In this document: positions 2,044-32,000 of the stretch, one piece after another | Layout: each line of letters opens with the position of its first letter | How positions within the stretch are numbered: the stretch's first letter is position 1 | From: Schaalia meyeri | GTDB taxonomy: Bacteria; Actinomycetota; Actinomycetes; Actinomycetales; Actinomycetaceae | Assembly (NCBI RefSeq): GCF_900105015.1 | Contig: NZ_FNLK01000015.1 | Coordinates: forward strand, 30,001 to 62,000 | Direction: 5' to 3' | Length of the DNA: 32,000 nucleotides | Notes under the pieces: generated by a model | Seen by the model: only the letters and a program-made list of their open reading frames with translations | Database searches by the model: none | Told to the model about the DNA's origin: nothing | Program-made: the position numbers and the translations under genes

Positions 2044-4200
2044 TCACAGCATGCACGACACGCAGCCCTCAACCGCCGTGCCTTCCAGGGCCATCTGGCG
2101 CAAGCGCATGTAGTACAGGGTCTTAATGCCCTTCCTCCACGCGTAAATGTAGGACTTGTTCAGGTCGCGCGTCGTCACCGTGTCCGGGTAGAACAGCGTG
2201 AGCGACAGGCCCTGATCCACGTGCTGGGTGGCCACCGCGTACGTGTCAATGATCTTCTCCGGACCGATCTCGTACGCGTCCTGGTAGTACTCCAGGTTCT
2301 CGTTCGACATGTAGGGCGCCGGGTAATAGACGCGGCCGATCTTACCTTCCTTGCGGATCTCCACGCGGGAAACGATCGGGTGAATCGAGGATGTCGAATT
2401 ATTGATGTACGAAATGGAACCCGTCGGAGGAACCGCCTGCAGGTTCTGGTTGTACATGCCGTAACGCGCCACGTCCGCCGCCAGCGCCTCCCAATCCTGC
2501 CGGGTCGGCACCTGAATCGACGAGGCCGCAAGCAGCTCGCGGCACCTGTCCGTGGTCGGCTCCCACGCCTCGTCGATGTACTTGCGGAAGAACTCGCCGG
2601 ACGCGTACGTCGAGTCCTCGAAGCCCTCGAAACGCTCCTTGCGCTCGCGCGCGATCGTGCACGACGCCTTGATCGCCTCGAAAAGCACCGTCATGAAGTA
2701 CATGTTCGTGAAGTCGAGGGCCTCCTCGCTCCCGTAGTGCACGTGCTCGCGCGCCAGGTACCCGTGCAGGTTCATCTGCCCCAGGCCGATGGCGTGGCTC
2801 ATCGCGTTGCCGCGGGCGATCGACGGCACCGCGCCGATGTCCGACAGGTCCGACACGGCCGTCAACCCTCGGACAGCCGTCTCGATCGTCTTGGAGAAGT
2901 CCGGGGAATCCATGGTCTTGGCGATGTTGAGCGAGCCCAGGTTGCAGGAAATGTCCTTGCCCACGTGCGAATACGACAGGTCATCGTTATATGTCGAGGC
3001 CTCCGAGACCTGCAGGATCTCCGAGCACAGGTTCGACATCGTGATGCGGCCCTTGATCGGGTTCGCCGCGTTCACCGTGTCCTCGAAGACGATGTACGGG
3101 TAGCCGGACTCGAACTGAATCTCCGCGATCGTCTGGAAGAATCGACGCGCGTTGATCTTCTTTTTGTGAATGCGACCGTCGTCCACCATCTCGTGGTATT
3201 TCTCCGTCACCGAGATTTCAGAGAACGGCACCCCGTACACGCGCTCCACGTCGTAGGGGCTGAAGAGGTACATGTCCTCGTTCTTACGGGCCAGCTCGAA
3301 TGTAATATCCGGGATGACCACGCCCAGGGAGAGGGTCTTGATGCGGATCTTCTCGTCCGCGTTCTCACGCTTCGTGTCCAGGAACGCCATGATGTCCGGG
3401 TGGTGGGCATGCAGGTACACGGCGCCGGCGCCCTGGCGGGCCCCCAGCTGGTTGGCGTAAGAGAAGGAGTCCTCCAGCAGCTTCATGACCGGGACGACGC
3501 CGCTGGACTGGTTCTGGATCCTCTTAATGGGGGCGCCCGACTCGCGCAGGTTCGTCAGCTGCAGGGCGACGCCGCCGCCACGCTTGGACAGCTGCAGCGC
3601 CGAGTTGATGCCGCGCGCGATCGACTCCATGTTGTCCTCGATGCGCAGCAGGAAGCAGCTGACCAGTTCGCCGCGCGCCGCCTTGCCCGCGTTCAGGAAA
3701 GTCGGGGTCGCGGGCTGGAAGCGGCCGGCCATGATCTCATCCACGAACTGGCGAGCCAGCTCAATGTCACCGCGCGCCAGGTACATGGACACCATCGTCA
3801 CGCGGTCCTCGAAGCGCTCCAGGTAGCGTTTGCCGTCGAAGGTCTTGAGCGTGTAGGAGGTGTAGTACTTGAACGCGCCCAGGAACGTGGGGAAACGGAA
3901 CTTGTGGGCGTAGGCCCGCTTGTACAGCTCCTTGATGTCGGCGAATTCGTACTGGTCCAGGACGTGGCGTTCGTAGTAGCCCTCGTCCACCAGGTACTTC
4001 AGCTTCTCCTCCAGGTCGTGGAAGAACACCGTGTTCTGGTTGACGTGCTGCAGGAAATACTGGCGGGCAGCCGCACGATCCGCGTCGAATTGGATGCGCC
4101 CGTCCGCGTCGTACAGGTTAAGCTGCGCGTTCAGCGCGTGGTAGTCCAGCTCCGGTGAGGGAGCCTCTTCTACGCCCGTGTCGGTGTAGTTTTCTGCCAA
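2044..4200 (-). CDS. nrdE: class Ib ribonucleoside-diphosphate reductase alpha subunit
   Basis: 718 aa with an NrdE-type N-terminus ([14 protein letters not shown]), the active-site region NLCSEI and the C-terminal redox cysteine pair CVSC. It sits downstream of nrdH and nrdI. The start is TTG at 4198-4200, preceded by GAAGGA, and overlaps the nrdI 3' end by 31 nt. Confidence 0.97.
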
Positions 4201-4812: not shown

Positions 4813-5064
4813 TCAGGCCTGCAGGGCCAGGGGGGCTGCGGCCACGGCGACGGCCTTGATGCGGTCGGGGCGGAAGCCGGACCAGTGATCTTCGCCCGCC
4901 ACGACGACGGGGGCCTGCTGGTAGCCGAGGCCCTTAATGAAGGCCAGGGAGTCAGCGTCCTGGGTGACGTCGATCTTTTCGTAAGAGACGCCCTGCTTGT
5001 CGAGGGCGCGGTAGGTGGCGTCGCACTGGGGGCAGCGGGGCTTCGAGTAAACGGTGATCGACAT
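4813..5064 (-). CDS. nrdH: glutaredoxin-like protein NrdH
   Basis: Track ORF trimmed to the ATG at 5062-5064 (MSITVYSKPRCPQC...), preceded by AAGGAG. It has the CPQC redox motif and the WSGFRPD motif characteristic of NrdH. 83 aa. Confidence 0.93.
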   Translation of the reverse strand: MSITVYSKPRCPQCDATYRALDKQGVSYEKIDVTQDADSLAFIKGLGYQQAPVVVAGEDHWSGFRPDRIKAVAVAAAPLALQA

Positions 5065-5736: not shown

Positions 5737-6669
5737 CTACATCCCCAGGAACGCCTTGATCGCTGGCATCTCGCGCACGGCTTGGACCAGGCCAGCCCGG
5801 TAGGTGGCTTCCAGACGTTCGCGCCGGGACTCGGTGTTGTTGATCCACAGGTTGTCGGGCGCAAACACGTAGGCCTGCCCGCGTTCCTCGAGCTTGAAAA
5901 GGAAGCGTCGCCCCGCGTTGTAGCGGTCGGGGCGGCGGGCGACGCCCTCGTAAACGGCGGGGTAGGACCGGTAGGTGGCGCGCAGGAGGGCCCCGACGCT
6001 GGCGGACATGGGGTTTTTCACGTAGTCGCGGGGGCGGGTGAGGACGACCAGGAGCTTGCGGTAGCCCTCGCGCAGGGGCTGGTCAAAGGGGAGGCCACCG
6101 TTGGGTCCCAGCGCGCCATCGACGTATGTGTCGCCGTCGATTTCTACGGGGGGCATGAGGACGGGCAGGGTGGAGGAGGCGCGCACGATGGGGCCCAGCT
6201 GGTCCAGGCCGCGCATCTCCTGCTTGGTAAACCAGCGCACCTGACCGCGCGAGGCATTGAAGGCGGCAACGCAGGTGGCCGCGGGGTTCGCCAGGAAGGC
6301 ATCCATGTTGAAGGGGAAGGCGCCGTCGGGGTAGCAGATCCGCTGGTAGATGTATTCGGCGTTGAAGTAGCCGTGACCCTTGCGGAAGTGCCTGAGCCCG
6401 CCGAATTCGGGGTCGTCAACCAGGTCGACGAAGGTCGCGTGCGAGCGGGATGCGTCGCGGGAGGTGAAGTTGCACAGGTGGCTGGCTCCCGCGGAGACGC
6501 CGGAGACGTGGGGAAAGTTAATGCCTTCGGCGATGAGCCGGGCGACCAGCGCGGCGGTGTAGGCGTTGCGCATCCCCCCGCCTTCAAAGACGATGGCGGT
6601 GTCGTCGATGGTGACCATCGTGTCGATGGACCGCTGGGGGGTCGGGTAGTGCTCTGGGATTTCCTTCAC
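5737..6669 (-). CDS. patatin-like phospholipase family protein
   Basis: Oxyanion motif FEGGGMRNAY and nucleophile elbow GVSAG, with a later DGA (YVDGAL) consistent with the Ser-Asp dyad. The start is uncertain: GTG at 6669, or ATG at 6618 (MVTIDD...). Confidence 0.9.
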   Translation of the reverse strand: MKEIPEHYPTPQRSIDTMVTIDDTAIVFEGGGMRNAYTAALVARLIAEGINFPHVSGVSAGASHLCNFTSRDASRSHATFVDLVDDPEFGGLRHFRKGHGYFNAEYIYQRICYPDGAFPFNMDAFLANPAATCVAAFNASRGQVRWFTKQEMRGLDQLGPIVRASSTLPVLMPPVEIDGDTYVDGALGPNGGLPFDQPLREGYRKLLVVLTRPRDYVKNPMSASVGALLRATYRSYPAVYEGVARRPDRYNAGRRFLFKLEERGQAYVFAPDNLWINNTESRRERLEATYRAGLVQAVREMPAIKAFLGM

Positions 6670-26951: not shown

Positions 26952-29251
26952 GCTCACCACGCATGACTTCCGGCGCCGGGCGGGTACTCGGTGGGCGCTA
27001 CACGCTGCTCACCCCGATCGCCCAGGGCGGCATGGGCGAGGTGTGGAAAGCCCGTGATCGGGTCAGCGGGCACATCGTCGCGGCGAAGGTCTTGCGTCCC
27101 GAACTGACGGGCGAAGAGCTGTCGCTGTCGCGTCTGCGCCTCGAAGCCCGCAATTCGATGGCTATTTCGCACCCGAACATCGCCAACACGCAGGATTCCG
27201 GTCAAGAAGAGGGCATCGGCTGGATCATCATGGAGCTGGTCGACGGCTATCCGCTGACGGATTACCTGCGCGGCGGATCCCGCATCGAACCGGAATACCT
27301 GATGCCGATCCTCGTGCAGGTCGCGATGGCACTGGGGGCCGCGGCCCGCGCGGGCGTCGTCCACCGCGACATCAAGCCCGCGAACATTCTGGTCCGCCCC
27401 GACGGCATGGTCAAGCTCACGGATTTTGGCATCTCGCGCGCGAAGGGTCAGGTCAACTTGACGGCCGCGGGCATGGTCATGGGCACCGCCCAGTACCTGC
27501 CGCCCGAGCAGGCCATGGGTGAAATCGCCACGCCCATCGGTGACCTGTACGCCCTGGGCGTCATCGCCTACGAGGCCGCAGCCGGGCGCCGCCCCTTCAC
27601 CGGCGAGACTCAGGTGGATATCGCTTTCTCACACGTCAACGACCCTGTGCCGTCCCTGCCGGATTTCGTGCCCGCGCCGCTGGCCGACGTGATCCTGCAC
27701 CTGCTGGAAAAGGACCCCGCGAAGCGGCCCGAGTCCGGTTCAGCCGCCGTCCGCGAGATCGCCAGCGCCGCCAAGGCCATGGGCATTTCCGTCACCCCAC
27801 GCCCCCTGCCCCTCCCAAAGTCCGCACAGCACCCCACCGAAATACGCACGCCCGTGCAACCCTCCGTGCCGATCGTCGCTCCCGTTCGTCACCTGACGCG
27901 CCGCACACTGCCCGACGAAATGCTGCAACCCCCGTCCGGCCTGACCCCCAAGGTGCGCTCGGTCTCGGGCCGCCACGCGATGCCCGTCCTGGACGAGGCG
28001 ACGACGATCGCCCCCTCCTCCGCGCCAATCCCAACCACGGGCCGTCACGCCTCAGCTCCGCGCGTCCTTGACGAGGCCGAGGTTTCCCCTGCCCCACGCC
28101 CGGCACCCGCGCCCGCGCCTGCGCGAGTTCGCCGTCTCCACCCCGAGACGGGCGAGCACGCGGCACCCGTTTCGGGCACGGTCCGCTCCCTCACCTCGAC
28201 CGGCCGCCACGCGGCCGCTGCACCGGCGGCTTCGGCAGCCGCGTCGGCGTCCCTCACGGGGGCCCCGGTCCCGGTGCGCTCCGCCGCCTCCGCGGGGGCG
28301 GCGATGATCGCGGGGGCAGCGGCTTCTCCCAAATCAGCCGACCGCCCGCAGGGGCCGGCCTCTCCCGCACGGGCAACGACCACCCCCGCGGGGGAGCCCA
28401 CGGCCGACCGCCCGCAGGGGCCGACGCCTCGAAGCAACGCACGGGCCTCGCACCCCGCTCCCAGTCCAACGCCTCCGACAAAGCACGCCCCCTCCCAGTC
28501 GTCCGCTGGCCCCTCCCGTTCCGCCGCCGACCCCTCCAGCTCTGCTGCCGCGCCGGAGGACCGACGGGCCGCCCTGGCCGAGCGCCTGCGCCAGCGCGCC
28601 GAACACCGCCAGGCCGAGGACGTCGCCGAGGAGCAACGCCGCGCACGGGTCGCCCGCGAGGAGGAACAGCGCAAACGCGAGCTGCGCGAGACCCGCAAGC
28701 GCCGCGAAGCCGAACAGGCCCAGCGTCAGCACGCCCAATCAGGTCCCCAGCGCTTCCCCCATCCCGCCCCCGGCCAGGACGGCCGTCGCAAAAAGGAGTC
28801 CACGGCCTCGTCTACGCCGCGCTCACCCTCACCCGCGCCGCGGTCAGCCTCGTCATCGTCACGCTCAGCATCGAGTTCAACGCACCGGGTGTACGGCACC
28901 GTGCCCCAGCCTCGTACAAAGAAACCCTCCACGCGGCCGCGCCGCTCCGTCTACGAGCCGCAACCGGAAAAGACGTCGCGGGGGCCGCGCTGGCACGAGC
29001 TTGACGCCCGAACGGCACAGCACACGCGCCCGCCGACGAAAACAGCGTACTCACGCAGCGCCGTCGCCCCACCCGTCCCAGTATCCAGGCATATTATCCG
29101 CGCGGTTGTCGCCGCAATCATCGTGATTGCGCTGATTGCGCTCTTAGCTATTACGATCAGACACATGCTTGGCTCCCTGATACATCCAAGTGCGGGGGCA
29201 CACATTATCGAGGAGGTTAGGACATGGCAGAGCCCATGGCCCACCGTCTAG
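26948..29251 (+). CDS. pknA: Ser/Thr protein kinase PknA-like with very long disordered juxtamembrane region
   Basis: GTGA overlap with pbpA (alternative ATG at 26963). Kinase motifs are GGMGEVWKA, HRDIKPANILV, DFGISR and PPEQ. About 430 low-complexity residues follow, then a single TM (IIRAVVAAIIVIALIALLAITI) and a ~30-aa tail. Confidence 0.88.
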   Translation: MSSPRMTSGAGRVLGGRYTLLTPIAQGGMGEVWKARDRVSGHIVAAKVLRPELTGEELSLSRLRLEARNSMAISHPNIANTQDSGQEEGIGWIIMELVDGYPLTDYLRGGSRIEPEYLMPILVQVAMALGAAARAGVVHRDIKPANILVRPDGMVKLTDFGISRAKGQVNLTAAGMVMGTAQYLPPEQAMGEIATPIGDLYALGVIAYEAAAGRRPFTGETQVDIAFSHVNDPVPSLPDFVPAPLADVILHLLEKDPAKRPESGSAAVREIASAAKAMGISVTPRPLPLPKSAQHPTEIRTPVQPSVPIVAPVRHLTRRTLPDEMLQPPSGLTPKVRSVSGRHAMPVLDEATTIAPSSAPIPTTGRHASAPRVLDEAEVSPAPRPAPAPAPARVRRLHPETGEHAAPVSGTVRSLTSTGRHAAAAPAASAAASASLTGAPVPVRSAASAGAAMIAGAAASPKSADRPQGPASPARATTTPAGEPTADRPQGPTPRSNARASHPAPSPTPPTKHAPSQSSAGPSRSAADPSSSAAAPEDRRAALAERLRQRAEHRQAEDVAEEQRRARVAREEEQRKRELRETRKRREAEQAQRQHAQSGPQRFPHPAPGQDGRRKKESTASSTPRSPSPAPRSASSSSRSASSSTHRVYGTVPQPRTKKPSTRPRRSVYEPQPEKTSRGPRWHELDARTAQHTRPPTKTAYSRSAVAPPVPVSRHIIRAVVAAIIVIALIALLAITIRHMLGSLIHPSAGAHIIEEVRTWQSPWPTV

Positions 29252-31236
29252 CTGGCCGATACGAGGTCCGTTCGCTCATCGGGCGCGGCGGAATGGCCGA
29301 GGTCCACCTGGGCTTCGACACTCGCCTGTCGCGCGTCGTCGCAATCAAGATGCTGCGGCGTGACCTGGCGCAGGACTCGATTTTCCAGGCGCGCTTCCGC
29401 CGCGAGGCGCAGTCAGCGGCGTCGTTGAATCACCCGAACATCGTCGCCGTCTACGACACGGGCGAAGAGATCGTCGAAGACGCGGTCCGTCGCTCAGTCG
29501 CCGTGCCCTACATCGTCATGGAGTATGTCGAGGGGCACACGGTTAAGGAACTCATCTCCGATGGCACGGCCGTTCCGATCAACGAGGCCGTCGAGATCGT
29601 GTCGGGCGTCCTGTCCGCCCTGGAGTATTCGCACGCGAACCATCTGGTGCACCGGGACATCAAGCCGGGCAATATCATGCTGACCTCGGACGGCAAGATC
29701 AAGGTCATGGACTTTGGCATCGCCCGGGCCCTGACGGACTCGCAGGCCACGATGACGCAGACGAACGCCGTCGTGGGCACCGCACAGTACCTGTCCCCCG
29801 AGCAGGCGCGCGGCGAGACCGTGGACGCCCGCTCGGACCTGTATTCGACGGGTGTCGTCCTCTTTGAACTGCTGACGGGGCGCCCGCCCTTCAAGGGCGA
29901 TTCCGCGGTCGCCGTCGCGTATCAGCACGTTGAGCAGATCCCGCCCACCCCCTCGTCAATCCTGTCCGATATCCCCGACCCCCTGGATCGCGTGGTGCTC
30001 AAGGCCCTGGCGAAAAACCGCGAGGATCGCTATCTCAGCGCCGCGGCGATGCTCTCGGACCTGCAGTGCGTGGCCCACGGACTGGACGTGGGTGCCCCGT
30101 CCGCCGACTCGTGGGCGACCCAGGTACTGCCCGCTCCGGGATTGGCGGGCGCGCAGACGGCTGCGACCACACCCCTGTCAGCGATTGGCGCGCATGAGGG
30201 CGCCCCAGCGATGGCCGCGACCTCCACGTCGCTTCCCCCCGTCGATCCCCAACAGGACGCGGCCAAGGAGGCCAGCAAGGCCCGTAAACGCCGCACCGCG
30301 ATCATTGTGTCCCTCGTCGTGATCGCCCTGCTCCTGATCGGCGGGTCCGTGTGGGCGCTGACGCGCCGCGCCGCGACCCCTGAAACCCTCGCGGTTCCCA
30401 ACGTCGTGGGCCTCAGCCAGGCGAACGCGAAGGAACAGATCGAGGCAGCCGGATTCACGTGGGAGCTCAACCCCGACAAGATCGCCTCCGACACGGTCGA
30501 GGAGGGTTCCGTTGCTTCGACAGACCCCGCCGCGGGCACGCAGGCCGAAAAGGGCGCAACCGTGCGCGTCACGATCTCTTCCGGACCCGACTCAGTGACT
30601 CTGCCGTCGAACCTGGTGGGCATGAGCCCCGACGACGCCCGCAAGGCCGTCGAGGCCCTGGGCCTGAAGTGGGAGCTTGACGCCAACAGGATTGCATCCA
30701 ACAGCGTCCCAGAGGGCAAGGTCGCGCAAACCAACCCCTCCCCCGGCTCCAAAGTCAAGGCCGGTCAGACCATCCGCGCCAACCTGTCCTCCGGCTCCGA
30801 TCAGGTTGAGGTCCCCGACCTTGAGGGTATGAGCCAGGACCAGGCCAGGAGCGCGCTGAAGGCCGTCGGCCTGGAGCTGGGCAACGTGACGAGCGTCGAT
30901 TCGGACAAGGAAAAGGATCGGATCGTTTCCCAGGATCCTTCCACCGGCACGAAGGTCAAGAAGGGCACCCGGGTTGGTGTGTCTGTCTCGAACGGCAAGA
31001 GCGCCCAGGTTGAGATCCCGACTGTTGTCGGAATCGGCAGCGAGGATGCTCAAGCGAAGCTGAAGGCCCTGGGCCTGAAGGTGACCGTCGAGGAAGTCGC
31101 CGACAATCAGCCGGCCGGACAGGTCCTGTCCGTCGAACCCGGCGAAGGCTCGAAGGTTGAGAAGAACTCGACCGTGAAGCTGAAGGTCTCCAAGGGGCCT
31201 CAGGGCGGCAACAACAACGGGAACAAAAAGAAGTGA
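29224..31236 (+). CDS. pknB: Ser/Thr protein kinase PknB with four PASTA domains
   Basis: GAGGAGG RBS. Kinase motifs are HRDIKPGNIML and DFGIAR, followed by a TM helix (AIIVSLVVIALLLIGGSVWAL). Four ~65-aa PASTA repeats start at VPNVVGLS, LPSNLVGMS, VPDLEGMS and IPTVVGIG. It overlaps pknA by 28 nt. Confidence 0.93.
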   Translation: MAEPMAHRLAGRYEVRSLIGRGGMAEVHLGFDTRLSRVVAIKMLRRDLAQDSIFQARFRREAQSAASLNHPNIVAVYDTGEEIVEDAVRRSVAVPYIVMEYVEGHTVKELISDGTAVPINEAVEIVSGVLSALEYSHANHLVHRDIKPGNIMLTSDGKIKVMDFGIARALTDSQATMTQTNAVVGTAQYLSPEQARGETVDARSDLYSTGVVLFELLTGRPPFKGDSAVAVAYQHVEQIPPTPSSILSDIPDPLDRVVLKALAKNREDRYLSAAAMLSDLQCVAHGLDVGAPSADSWATQVLPAPGLAGAQTAATTPLSAIGAHEGAPAMAATSTSLPPVDPQQDAAKEASKARKRRTAIIVSLVVIALLLIGGSVWALTRRAATPETLAVPNVVGLSQANAKEQIEAAGFTWELNPDKIASDTVEEGSVASTDPAAGTQAEKGATVRVTISSGPDSVTLPSNLVGMSPDDARKAVEALGLKWELDANRIASNSVPEGKVAQTNPSPGSKVKAGQTIRANLSSGSDQVEVPDLEGMSQDQARSALKAVGLELGNVTSVDSDKEKDRIVSQDPSTGTKVKKGTRVGVSVSNGKSAQVEIPTVVGIGSEDAQAKLKALGLKVTVEEVADNQPAGQVLSVEPGEGSKVEKNSTVKLKVSKGPQGGNNNGNKKK

Positions 31237-31282
31237 CGCCCCGCAGGATAAGCCCCGCGCAGGGTAAGTGAGGCCGCGTACC

Positions 31283-31419
31283 TGGATAGGAAATTGCTTC
31301 GTGGATAGGAAACAATCATCTGGATAGGTTATGAGCTTCTGGATAGGTTAATAAGCTATCCACGAGCGCATAACCTATCCAGAAACGCACTTCCTATCCA
31401 GCAGCGCGTTTCCTATCCA
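31283..31419. repeat. dyad-symmetric array of eight TGGATAGG sites with exact 19-bp phasing
   Basis: Forward copies start at 31283, 31302, 31321 and 31340. Inverted copies (CCTATCCA; one is GCTATCCA) start at 31355, 31374, 31393 and 31412. The symmetry centre is at 31351. The two outer sites on each arm extend as GGAA(A/G), and the two inner sites as G(G/C)TTA. The spacers between motifs are not conserved between arms. Confidence 0.9.
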
Positions 31420-31505
31420 CGAACCAGCGTAGGAGGCCCGCCCGCATCGTTCCTTTATTAACGAGGCCAGGTTCTCTTTCGCGGCCCGTTTCCCGCGCGG
31501 GCAGG

Positions 31506-31664
31506 TCAGGCACCGCCCACGGAGTCTCCGAGCTCCAGGTATGACTGGACCCAGGGGTAGACCCAGGTGAAGAGCGCGGCGACGGCCGCGCCGATAAGGA
31601 TCAGGAATTCGATGGCTTTCAGCCAGGTGGGCCCGGGGAGGTGGCGGAAGATCCATGCGTACAT
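31506..31664 (-). CDS. safA: small sortase-associated membrane protein (SafA-like)
   Basis: Trimmed to the ATG at 31662-31664, preceded by GAAAGG. 52 aa with one TM helix (AIEFLILIGAAVAALFTWV) followed by YPW, resembling the FPW motif reported for Actinomyces SafA. It lies immediately downstream of the class E sortase, as described for that family. Confidence 0.6.
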   Translation of the reverse strand: MYAWIFRHLPGPTWLKAIEFLILIGAAVAALFTWVYPWVQSYLELGDSVGGA

Positions 31665-31674
31665 GAGGGGCCTT

Positions 31675-32000
31675 TCAGTTCGTAGGTTCGTCAACGAGCT
31701 CGGCGGGGACGCCCGTGTCCTTCGGGGTCCATGATTCGAACTTGAGGTGGACGATGAACCGCTGCCAGTTGCCGTATTCGGGGTGGCAGGTGGTCATGGT
31801 CATCCAGCGTTCGGTGGGGGTTTCGGACCACGAAACGTCGTCGATGACGGGGGCGACGACGCGCATCTGCGTGGGGTCGGTGGCGTCGATGATCTCGGAG
31901 GAAACCATGGAGTACACCAGGTAGTGGTCGTCAACCTCCACGACGACCTTGTCGCCCTGGGTGAGTCGATCGATCCAGCGGAAGTTGTTGCCGTAGGTGC
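31675..32000 (-). CDS. srtA: class E (housekeeping) sortase, C-terminal part; the N-terminus lies beyond the window
   Basis: The reading frame is open to the window edge (..TYGNNFRWIDRLTQGDKVVVEVDDHYLVY..). The catalytic Cys context is MTTCHP, and the gene ends at the stop 31675-31677. Confidence 0.85.
   Translation of the reverse strand, partial: TYGNNFRWIDRLTQGDKVVVEVDDHYLVYSMVSSEIIDATDPTQMRVVAPVIDDVSWSETPTERWMTMTTCHPEYGNWQRFIVHLKFESWTPKDTGVPAELVDEPTN

Follow-up and report, generated by a model that had tools for sequence, protein, structure and literature searches.

Why does a short spacer between two converging genes carry eight copies of one motif in strict register? The question is raised by a stretch of 32,000 nucleotides (nt) of the Schaalia meyeri genome (hereafter, the window), in which pknB, on the plus strand, converges with a gene for a membrane protein of 52 amino acids (aa), labelled safA in the original prediction for this locus, and with the sortase gene that follows it, both on the minus strand. 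That prediction saw in the spacer a locus-specific array of protein-binding sites. We found that the array is, with near certainty, one copy of a dispersed family of modular palindromic repeats. The repeats are non-autonomous elements of the Schaalia/Pauljensenia/Actinomyces lineage, and we favour, at a probability of roughly 0.6, a composite reading in which this dispersed family has a cognate nuclease-like protein and would be mobilised by it.

Between positions 31283 and 31419 the window contains four forward and four inverted TGGATAGG-type sites. The forward sites start at 31283, 31302, 31321 and 31340, and the inverted ones at 31355, 31374, 31393 and 31412; starts are 19 base pairs (bp) apart throughout either arm, and the 15 bp separating the innermost pair place the dyad axis at 31351. 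Reading of the window and a motif search thereby bore out the 4+4 arrangement that had been claimed, with its exact 19-bp phase and its mirror point at 31351. The sites had also been taken for identical copies: eight there are, seven of them exact, and the one at 31355 reads TGGATAGC, with a single mismatch. Exact TGGATAGG matches numbered 7 in the 32-kb window (0.22 expected; 7 reached in 0 of 100 shuffles), and the motif search found none in it outside the array. The island is AT-rich, as had been stated, with a G+C content of 44-50% compared to 62-73% in the converging genes that flank it. The element and its parts are the following:

31280..31422, no strand: complete repeat element of family 'A', with 4 + 4 units of 19 bp (motif search and family alignment)
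31280..31351, plus strand: left arm, four tandem units, the 8-mers being followed by AAAT, AAAC, TTAT and TTAA
31352..31422, minus strand: right arm, four inverted units, with spacers of the 'gcgc' type, unlike those of the left arm
31345..31357, no strand: centre and hairpin tip AGGTTAATAAGCT, of the GGTTAaTAAGC subtype common to many other copies

The centre of the window element belongs to the GGTTAATAAGC subtype; the other type of centre in the family is a short GGTTAtTAACC palindrome.

One genome per bacterial species was scanned with the pattern TGGATAGG-N11-TGGATAGG, and at least 116 stretches with two phased 8-mers were found. Among the matches listed, about half belonged to Actinomyces, Schaalia or Pauljensenia, where one genome often had several loci and forward and inverted matches adjoined; those from other phyla were single chance matches or unrelated tandem repeats. 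By our own arithmetic, chance would produce about 280 matches in 596 Gb. A census with relaxed criteria (core GGATAG with at most one mismatch, 19-bp phase, 15-bp centre) yielded at least 79 hairpin-type elements at 59 loci retrieved from Actinomyces/Schaalia/Pauljensenia genomes, with several in one genome (at least 8 in Schaalia sp. ORNL0103 and at least 10 in A. bouchesdurhonensis). The search for 19-bp phased runs elsewhere, which had been proposed as a check, has therefore revealed a dispersed family and not a unique array, and the many further copies that the original prediction itself had named as speaking against a local array do exist, although without the target-site duplications (TSDs) expected to accompany them.

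Every element of the family is built of direct 19-bp units, a short palindromic centre (GGTTAtTAACC) and then inverted units. A left arm consists of 2-6 units and a right arm of 2-5; the 3+3 form accounts for 39 of the 79 elements, and the window copy is among the three that are 4+4. The 19-bp unit, WTSYGGATAGGWWAy plus 4-5 low-information positions, has the same logo in both arms, and its conserved part extends over some 15 nt where about 12 had been proposed. Many outermost units begin with CGG, not TGG, and family conservation ceases 3 nt beyond the outermost 8-mers, the flanks of separate copies being unrelated. As for TSDs, no direct repeat of 2-9 bp was enriched at any offset in the flanks of 76 copies. 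Outside the elements, GGATAG occurred at or below the chance level in the retrieved loci, and about 0.5 Mb of related loci contained neither solitary arms nor a long parent element with separated ends. A scan of viral contigs for the phased pattern gave mostly single chance matches and no phage link, and a few oral-metagenome contigs among them (L122-124, L128, L129) harboured ordinary copies. We found no literature description of the repeat family or of the gene-repeat link reported below, an absence which is in itself no proof of novelty.

All 79 copies lie outside gene-like open reading frames (ORFs). For 42 copies with both neighbours called, the context was convergent in 15 cases, tandem in 25 and divergent in 2; the deficit of divergent spacers has a binomial P of 6e-4 assuming independence, which holds only partly. 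The copies thus mostly sit at gene 3' ends and rarely in divergent-promoter spacers. Their neighbours are unrelated housekeeping genes, and several species have copies at the same sites. A survey for recurrent neighbours, made with a gene filter based on G+C content at third codon positions (G+C3) that missed the nuclease-like gene described below, yielded orthologous housekeeping contexts only. At such orthologous occupied sites, lengths differ by ±19, ±38, ±57 bp and so on, indicating that whole modules are gained and lost.

The pknB locus itself is subject to change. In strains with identical PknB (L231-L234) the window's element was present in all, and the differences between them lay nearly all within it, the only one outside being a 1-nt indel upstream. 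When compared to window positions 31316-31320 and 31351-31354, L232 and L234 show a 5-nt spacer deletion and indels of 2-4 nt at the hairpin tip. This deletion, which turns one 19-bp interval into 14 bp and breaks the phase, is kept in these strains, and a function needing exact phase at the pknB locus is therefore not expected. Change and assembly breaks concentrate locally in the element, and contig L233 stops inside it. A comparison of the pknB-safA spacer among relatives had been suggested as a further check on the array; A-type copies are indeed present there (see below), but the phase is broken in the identical-PknB strains.

The two arms were then compared position by position. Mirrored positions within the motif are about 100% complementary, and at spacer positions -6 and -5 complementarity is seen in just 10-14% of copies. 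The spacers had been described as completely different between the arms; they do differ, not randomly but as two arm-specific types, 'gaaca/gacga' in one arm and 'gcgca' in the other, which gives the element a polarity. In a covariation test of 143 mirrored unit pairs against re-paired controls, complementarity of the variable positions (0, -3 to -1, +8 and +9) was not above the controls (best case 0.62 vs 0.55), and four positions were significantly less complementary than the controls. Lack of covariation in the variable positions, together with the near-invariant motif, indicates that the unit motif is kept while arm pairing is not, in agreement with the earlier preference for a putative protein-binding array over a hairpin selected for pairing. 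A separate observation concerns a single element, that of L061 at 5780-5843, in which the outer-unit spacers of both arms share 'acgctgtt' in direct and not inverted orientation, a hint at possible same-strand copying between arms.

A particular gene is associated with the repeats. In L112, L082, L061, L058, L100 and L055, elements 1.2-1.3 kb apart enclose an ORF of about 355 aa beside sigE/anti-sigma genes. The gene, hereafter referred to as nuclease-like, is single-copy and chromosomal, and its product has about 360 aa. A profile scan of metagenomes, from which the best 80 loci were kept, retrieved subfamily 1 in all cases (73-96% identity), leaving the lineage sample as wide as before. Among loci with enough sequence, an A-type element was found at most 700 nt upstream of the gene in 69 out of 72, the innermost one usually ending 104-107 nt before the ATG, and in 62 out of 62 a downstream element overlapped the last 10-29 nt of the coding region, so that the ORF ends within the first units; in L061, the TAG of a TGGATAGG serves as its stop codon. 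Polarity is the same for the elements on both sides of the gene. In many loci each side has a nest of 2-4 elements, and an arm can reach 11 units (for nests of up to 4 elements per side and single arms of 7-11 units, see L170 1950-2400, L184 3540-4700, L156 and L148), and these nests arose by tandem duplication of an element together with a linker of 32-130 nt.

As the subfamily-1 gene of these 80 loci occupies one orthologous site beside sigE/anti-sigma, divergent homologues at other loci were examined as a test of the predicted association. In 7 out of the 9 sampled lineages they were accompanied by elements whose direct units repeat every 19 bp and are succeeded by inverted ones:

P0060 (40% identity): unit GGGAGCATTACACCATTTA, of the GGGAGCATTGCACCA type, on both sides, the downstream element overlapping the stop codon
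P0053 (42% identity): P0060-type units (GGGAGCATTGCACCA), at both contig ends
P0039 and P0044 (46-47% identity): unit ATTGRCACCACTTGGCGGC, upstream
P0069 (profile E = 1.1e-90): unit TGCACCAyTT, at both contig ends
P0075 (profile E = 2.6e-75): unit TTGGTGCCG, on both sides
P0100 (profile E = 4.5e-49): unit CTTTGGTYRC, on both sides
P0133 (profile E = 2.8e-38): unit AAGATCCACCCGTTA, downstream

In some 480 kb of related DNA the GGGAGCATTGCACC type has about five sites, of which three to four belong to the orthologous pknB locus, and given this rarity elsewhere its occurrence on both sides of P0060 is not background.

Database similarities of the linked protein were limited to weak REase_MTES_1575, DUF559 and RAP matches, with none in NCBIfam. 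A word-indexed homologue search returned 65 clusters, with 'endonuclease domain-containing protein [Actinomyces]' as the sole source name, and an exhaustive profile search gave 1386 at the 50% identity level, of which 142 had E ≤ 1e-30. Residues D251, E262-F-D264 and K268 were invariant in 21 sequences of 39-75% identity. The AlphaFold (AF2) model, with a predicted local distance difference test (pLDDT) score of 83.7, contains a C-terminal alpha/beta domain that Foldseek matched to Vsr (1cw0) with a probability of 0.98, a template-modelling (TM) score of 0.50, target-normalised, and an E-value of 0.17. The N-terminal ~230 residues gave no convincing structural match; Foldseek with the whole protein returned nothing significant, just the local Vsr-like similarity; a PDB search with the sequence profile gave no match, and plasmid and phage collections contained no homologue. 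From these similarities and residues, the C-terminal domain is predicted to be a Vsr/DUF559-like PD-(D/E)xK nuclease domain.

On the sequence evidence, the odds that this nuclease-like protein is the cognate partner of the elements are about two in three, and the odds that it mobilises them about even. Each ~15-nt module would be a putative binding site of the protein, probably contacted through its N-terminal two thirds, and the nuclease domain would act on the duplex or on an extruded-hairpin form of the element. The protein would thereby maintain and spread the elements, as RAYT transposases do for REP/REPIN. The pknB/safA copy would have no origin role and would at most serve as a large hairpin stopping or stabilising two converging transcripts. 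A more specific proposal, to which we give slightly less than an even chance, is that these elements represent a REPIN-like class of the Actinomycetota, undescribed before, in which a Vsr/DUF559-like PD-(D/E)xK partner with a new N-terminal domain is associated with 19-bp-module palindromes co-evolving with its subfamily, the pknB/safA array being one member.

Several observations weigh against the composite reading. The linked gene is known from loci of relatives and metagenomes, not from the window's own genome, and the 80 loci at a single orthologous site represent few independent events. In two of the nine sampled lineages (P0163 and P0088), the short flanks lacked a 19-bp hairpin. The Pfam scores of the protein (17-20 bits) are under the curated cut-offs of 20.6 and 38.2, and its other structural neighbours, PvuRts1I and the Vsr-like homing endonuclease I-Bth0305I, came with E-values that are weak throughout. 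Binding, cleavage and transposition are attributed to the protein from sequence only, and mobility would follow from dispersal only: when the 150-nt flanks of 308 elements were BLASTed against all loci, no clean empty site was found, and the matches corresponded only to tandem duplications of element plus linker around the nuclease-like gene. Many copies also lie at orthologous positions across species at ~82-85% DNA identity, and such retention fits host-selected sites as well.

The last point leads to a different explanation, namely that the elements are non-mobile, each an array to which a chromosomal protein, nuclease-like or other, binds and which the host has selected for regulatory, nucleoid-organising or insulating purposes. 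This would account for copies being kept at orthologous positions in several species, for a conserved motif with free spacers and arms devoid of covariation, and for the bias to gene 3' ends. We nevertheless consider it unlikely, since it leaves dozens of near-identical palindromes at unrelated loci unexplained without a copying mechanism, and since module number is unstable among orthologues, the neighbouring genes are functionally unrelated and the phase-breaking 5-nt deletion is tolerated between identical-PknB strains. The elements could also work at the RNA or transcription level, as bidirectional factor-independent terminators or 3'-end stabilisers in which the motif is incidental. When single-stranded, the window element is predicted to fold into a long interrupted hairpin, strong on both strands as RNA (-82.1 kcal/mol for the plus and -84.2 kcal/mol for the minus strand; z-scores of -11.0 and -9.7) and also as DNA (-44.1 kcal/mol; z-score -9.5); the spacer has no other terminator-like site, and 40 of the 42 contexts are convergent or tandem. 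However, compensatory covariation is lacking and spacer positions are anti-correlated between arms, a terminator has no need of an invariant 7-8-nt core with exact 19-bp modularity, and scans of the spacer revealed no consensus terminator, U-tract or promoter and no Rfam family (best 15-22 bits vs thresholds of 36-98). Such a device is rather improbable as the reason for the family, although termination may be a side effect of the element, and from the predicted fold it could plausibly stop transcription in both directions, or stabilise RNA, between the converging genes.

A further candidate is a miniature inverted-repeat transposable element (MITE) in which two multi-site ends of a DDE transposon abut; its parent would be Tn7-, Mu-, Tn402- or IS21-like, with arrayed transposase sites of ~19-22 bp and 5'-TG...CA-3' tips, and it would be mobilised in trans. 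Such an element would agree with the many TG...CA units, with ~19-bp site arrays in inverted arms and with the dispersal of the copies. It is made highly improbable by the absence of TSDs of any length at 76 copies, by outermost units that often have CGG instead of TGG, by the failure of ~0.5 Mb of related loci to show any solitary arm or any long element whose ends are separated, and by the fact that the only consistently flanked gene is nuclease-like and not a DDE transposase. The actinobacterial pknB cluster is usually close to oriC, and three to four of the inverted window sites read CTATCCAC, a 6-7/9 match to the DnaA box TTATCCACA; both facts speak for a DnaA-box cluster, titrating or origin-auxiliary, or for a centromere in the pknB region. 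We regard this as barely credible. The likeness to DnaA boxes fails across the family, whose consensus CCTATCC(A/G)GAT departs from TTATCCACA and TTGTCCACA at core positions, being variable (A/G) in the core and having G where the box has C. Moreover, copies are spread over many unrelated loci, the 19-bp phase is broken in sister strains, and the suspected link to oriC, dnaA or partition genes found no counterpart within the 32-kb window, where no dnaA, dnaN or par gene was seen. Among the three roles offered by the original prediction, a cargo-less miniature element comes closest to the composite reading, and the DnaA/origin and centromere roles are not supported.

How the composite reading relates to known systems is best seen by comparison with the repetitive extragenic palindromic (REP) sequences, their hairpin-forming doublets (REPINs) and REP-associated tyrosine transposases (RAYTs). 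The defining arrangement of REPIN-RAYT systems is a single-copy chromosomal gene bracketed by its own repeats, whose sequence shifts with the subfamily (PMC3116915, PMC3337134, PMC5581495). As in REP/REPIN-RAYT systems and clusters of bacterial interspersed mosaic elements (BIMEs) of enterobacteria and pseudomonads, the elements described here are short extragenic palindromes, present in tens per genome, mostly at gene 3' ends and without TSDs; a vertically inherited single-copy gene is flanked by cognate repeats, which cluster beside it, and distinct gene subfamilies go with distinct repeat sequences (here in 7/9 lineages). Unlike in those systems, the flanked gene does not encode a Y1/HUH transposase (PF01797) but a protein with a Vsr/DUF559-like PD-(D/E)xK domain, as predicted, and an uncharacterised N-terminal region, and the host is a high-G+C Gram-positive lineage. 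REP sequences are imperfect palindromes of 20-40 nt with a 5' GTAG, arranged as inverted doublets, whereas each arm here has 2-11 tandem, non-palindromic 19-bp modules whose spacers do not pair, so that only the whole element is palindromic. Because enzyme class and unit structure both differ, we have not filed the elements as a member of REPIN-RAYT.

Other repeat classes resemble the elements in part. Pneumococcal BOX elements (boxA-boxB(n)-boxC) are likewise modular, intergenic and non-coding, with a variable number of internal modules and strong predicted structure, but their modules have ~45-60 nt and do not form n direct plus n inverted copies, and no dedicated flanked gene is known for them. 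With MITEs such as the Correia elements of Neisseria, and with palindrome-associated transposable elements (PATEs) derived from IS200/IS605, they share being non-autonomous, palindromic, dispersed and intergenic, and with PATEs and IS200/IS605 also the hairpins and the lack of TSDs. Classical MITEs, in contrast, have terminal inverted repeats together with TSDs, and a recognisable parent insertion sequence, neither of which was found in the loci retrieved here; the absence of TSDs alone sets the elements apart from that class. The TnpA(Y1) and TnpB proteins of IS200/IS605 were not seen here either. Phased tandem modules of 11-22 bp, sometimes in opposed blocks, also occur in plasmid iterons, in type II/III centromeres (R1 parC, the 20-bp repeats of pSK41) and in the sites of Tn7, Mu and Tn402, but those are single loci beside rep/par genes or at transposon ends, whereas here there are dozens of chromosomal copies with no such neighbour.

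For annotation, the locus downstream of pknB offers nothing specific to origin, DnaA or partition, and the element should be masked as a repeat. To our knowledge, persistent, vertically inherited repeats with a dedicated single-copy enzyme are so far essentially limited to proteobacterial REP/REPIN-RAYT. If the composite reading is true, a second such system, with an unrelated enzyme and in Gram-positive oral actinobacteria, would mean that this lifestyle has evolved more than once. It would also give a function to a large family whose 1386 clusters have no Pfam or NCBIfam name, account for the frequent assembly breaks in Schaalia/Actinomyces metagenome contigs, and provide defined pairs of 15-nt module and protein with an apparently programmable specificity.

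Some further features were noted around the nuclease-like gene. Upstream of it, in nearly every subfamily and whatever the repeat type, there are one or two boxes (T)TATCCACAGG, as a rule two with a distance of 30 nt, at about -92 and -62 relative to the ATG, with ATCCACAGG as the conserved box. Their core equals the E. coli-type DnaA box TTATCCACA, and they could be promoter or operator sequences or true DnaA boxes. Their positions are:

L112: ~4973-5016
L137: ~2075-2118
L151, L197 and L203: ~2408-2453
L227: ~63-136
L229: ~503-516
L230: ~2439-2452
L235: ~1418-1431
L236: ~1216-1260

In the P0039 lineage (L135 5158-7940, and L136), a 221-aa ORF that belongs to no known family comes after the nuclease-like gene, and then a gene resembling mazG and one for a ResIII/SLFN-like helicase; from these similarities the neighbourhood may be of a defence type. 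Tandem repeats of another kind lie beside distant homologues. In L230 (3706-4111 and 4569-4768) their units measure 62-63 nt and 60 nt, and in L235 (993-1166) they are T-rich and measure 20-24 nt.

Returning to the window, the genes on either side of the element are:

29224..31236, plus strand: gene for a PknB-type Ser/Thr kinase, with Pkinase and 4 PASTA domains (domain matches)
31506..31664, minus strand: sortase-adjacent gene for a 52-aa single-pass membrane protein, compatible with the label 'safA', its identity being unconfirmed
31675..32000, minus strand: 3' part of a sortase gene (PF04203), which leaves the window at its end

The stop codon of pknB is 43 nt before the element, and that of the 52-aa membrane-protein gene 83 nt past it. 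A minus-strand ORF at 31375-31656 (93 aa), which runs over the right arm, was rejected as spurious, having no family match and a frame other than that of the 52-aa gene in relatives.

The window spacer (31237-31505) was compared with L095 5903-7649, L057 2017-3561 and L050 1-3343. In the relatives L078, L095, L057 and L050 (82-85% DNA identity), trpG separates pknB from the small membrane-protein gene, and the pknB-trpG spacer contains one or two 3+3 A-type copies. Besides trpG, which encodes a glutamine amidotransferase, L050 has an additional ORF of ~1.8 kb in this interval; the window species has neither of the two there, its spacer measuring 269 bp. Between two A-type elements, the pknB-trpG spacer of relatives also contains a second palindrome of 19-bp period, made of GGGAGCATTGCACCA units (L078 ~340-470, on the minus strand of the locus; L095 ~6420-6520; L057 ~2990-3090; L050 ~150-240; such repeats also at L037 37-95). 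A further inverted repeat, gggggttttgcac...gtgcaaaaccccc, was seen in the same spacers of L078 (reverse strand), L095 and L050, and lies in L078 ~200-290 nt upstream of the trpG-proximal A element; it may be a third small repeat family of these genomes. Finally, L095 (NZ_JVKM01000047.1, 'Xylanimonas cellulosilytica 352_XCEL') has a Schaalia-type pknB region, 82-84% identical to the window, together with A-type elements, and L083 and L101, labelled 'Sanguibacter keddieii 250_SKED', also carry A-type elements; judging by these sequences, the three assemblies look mislabelled or contaminated.

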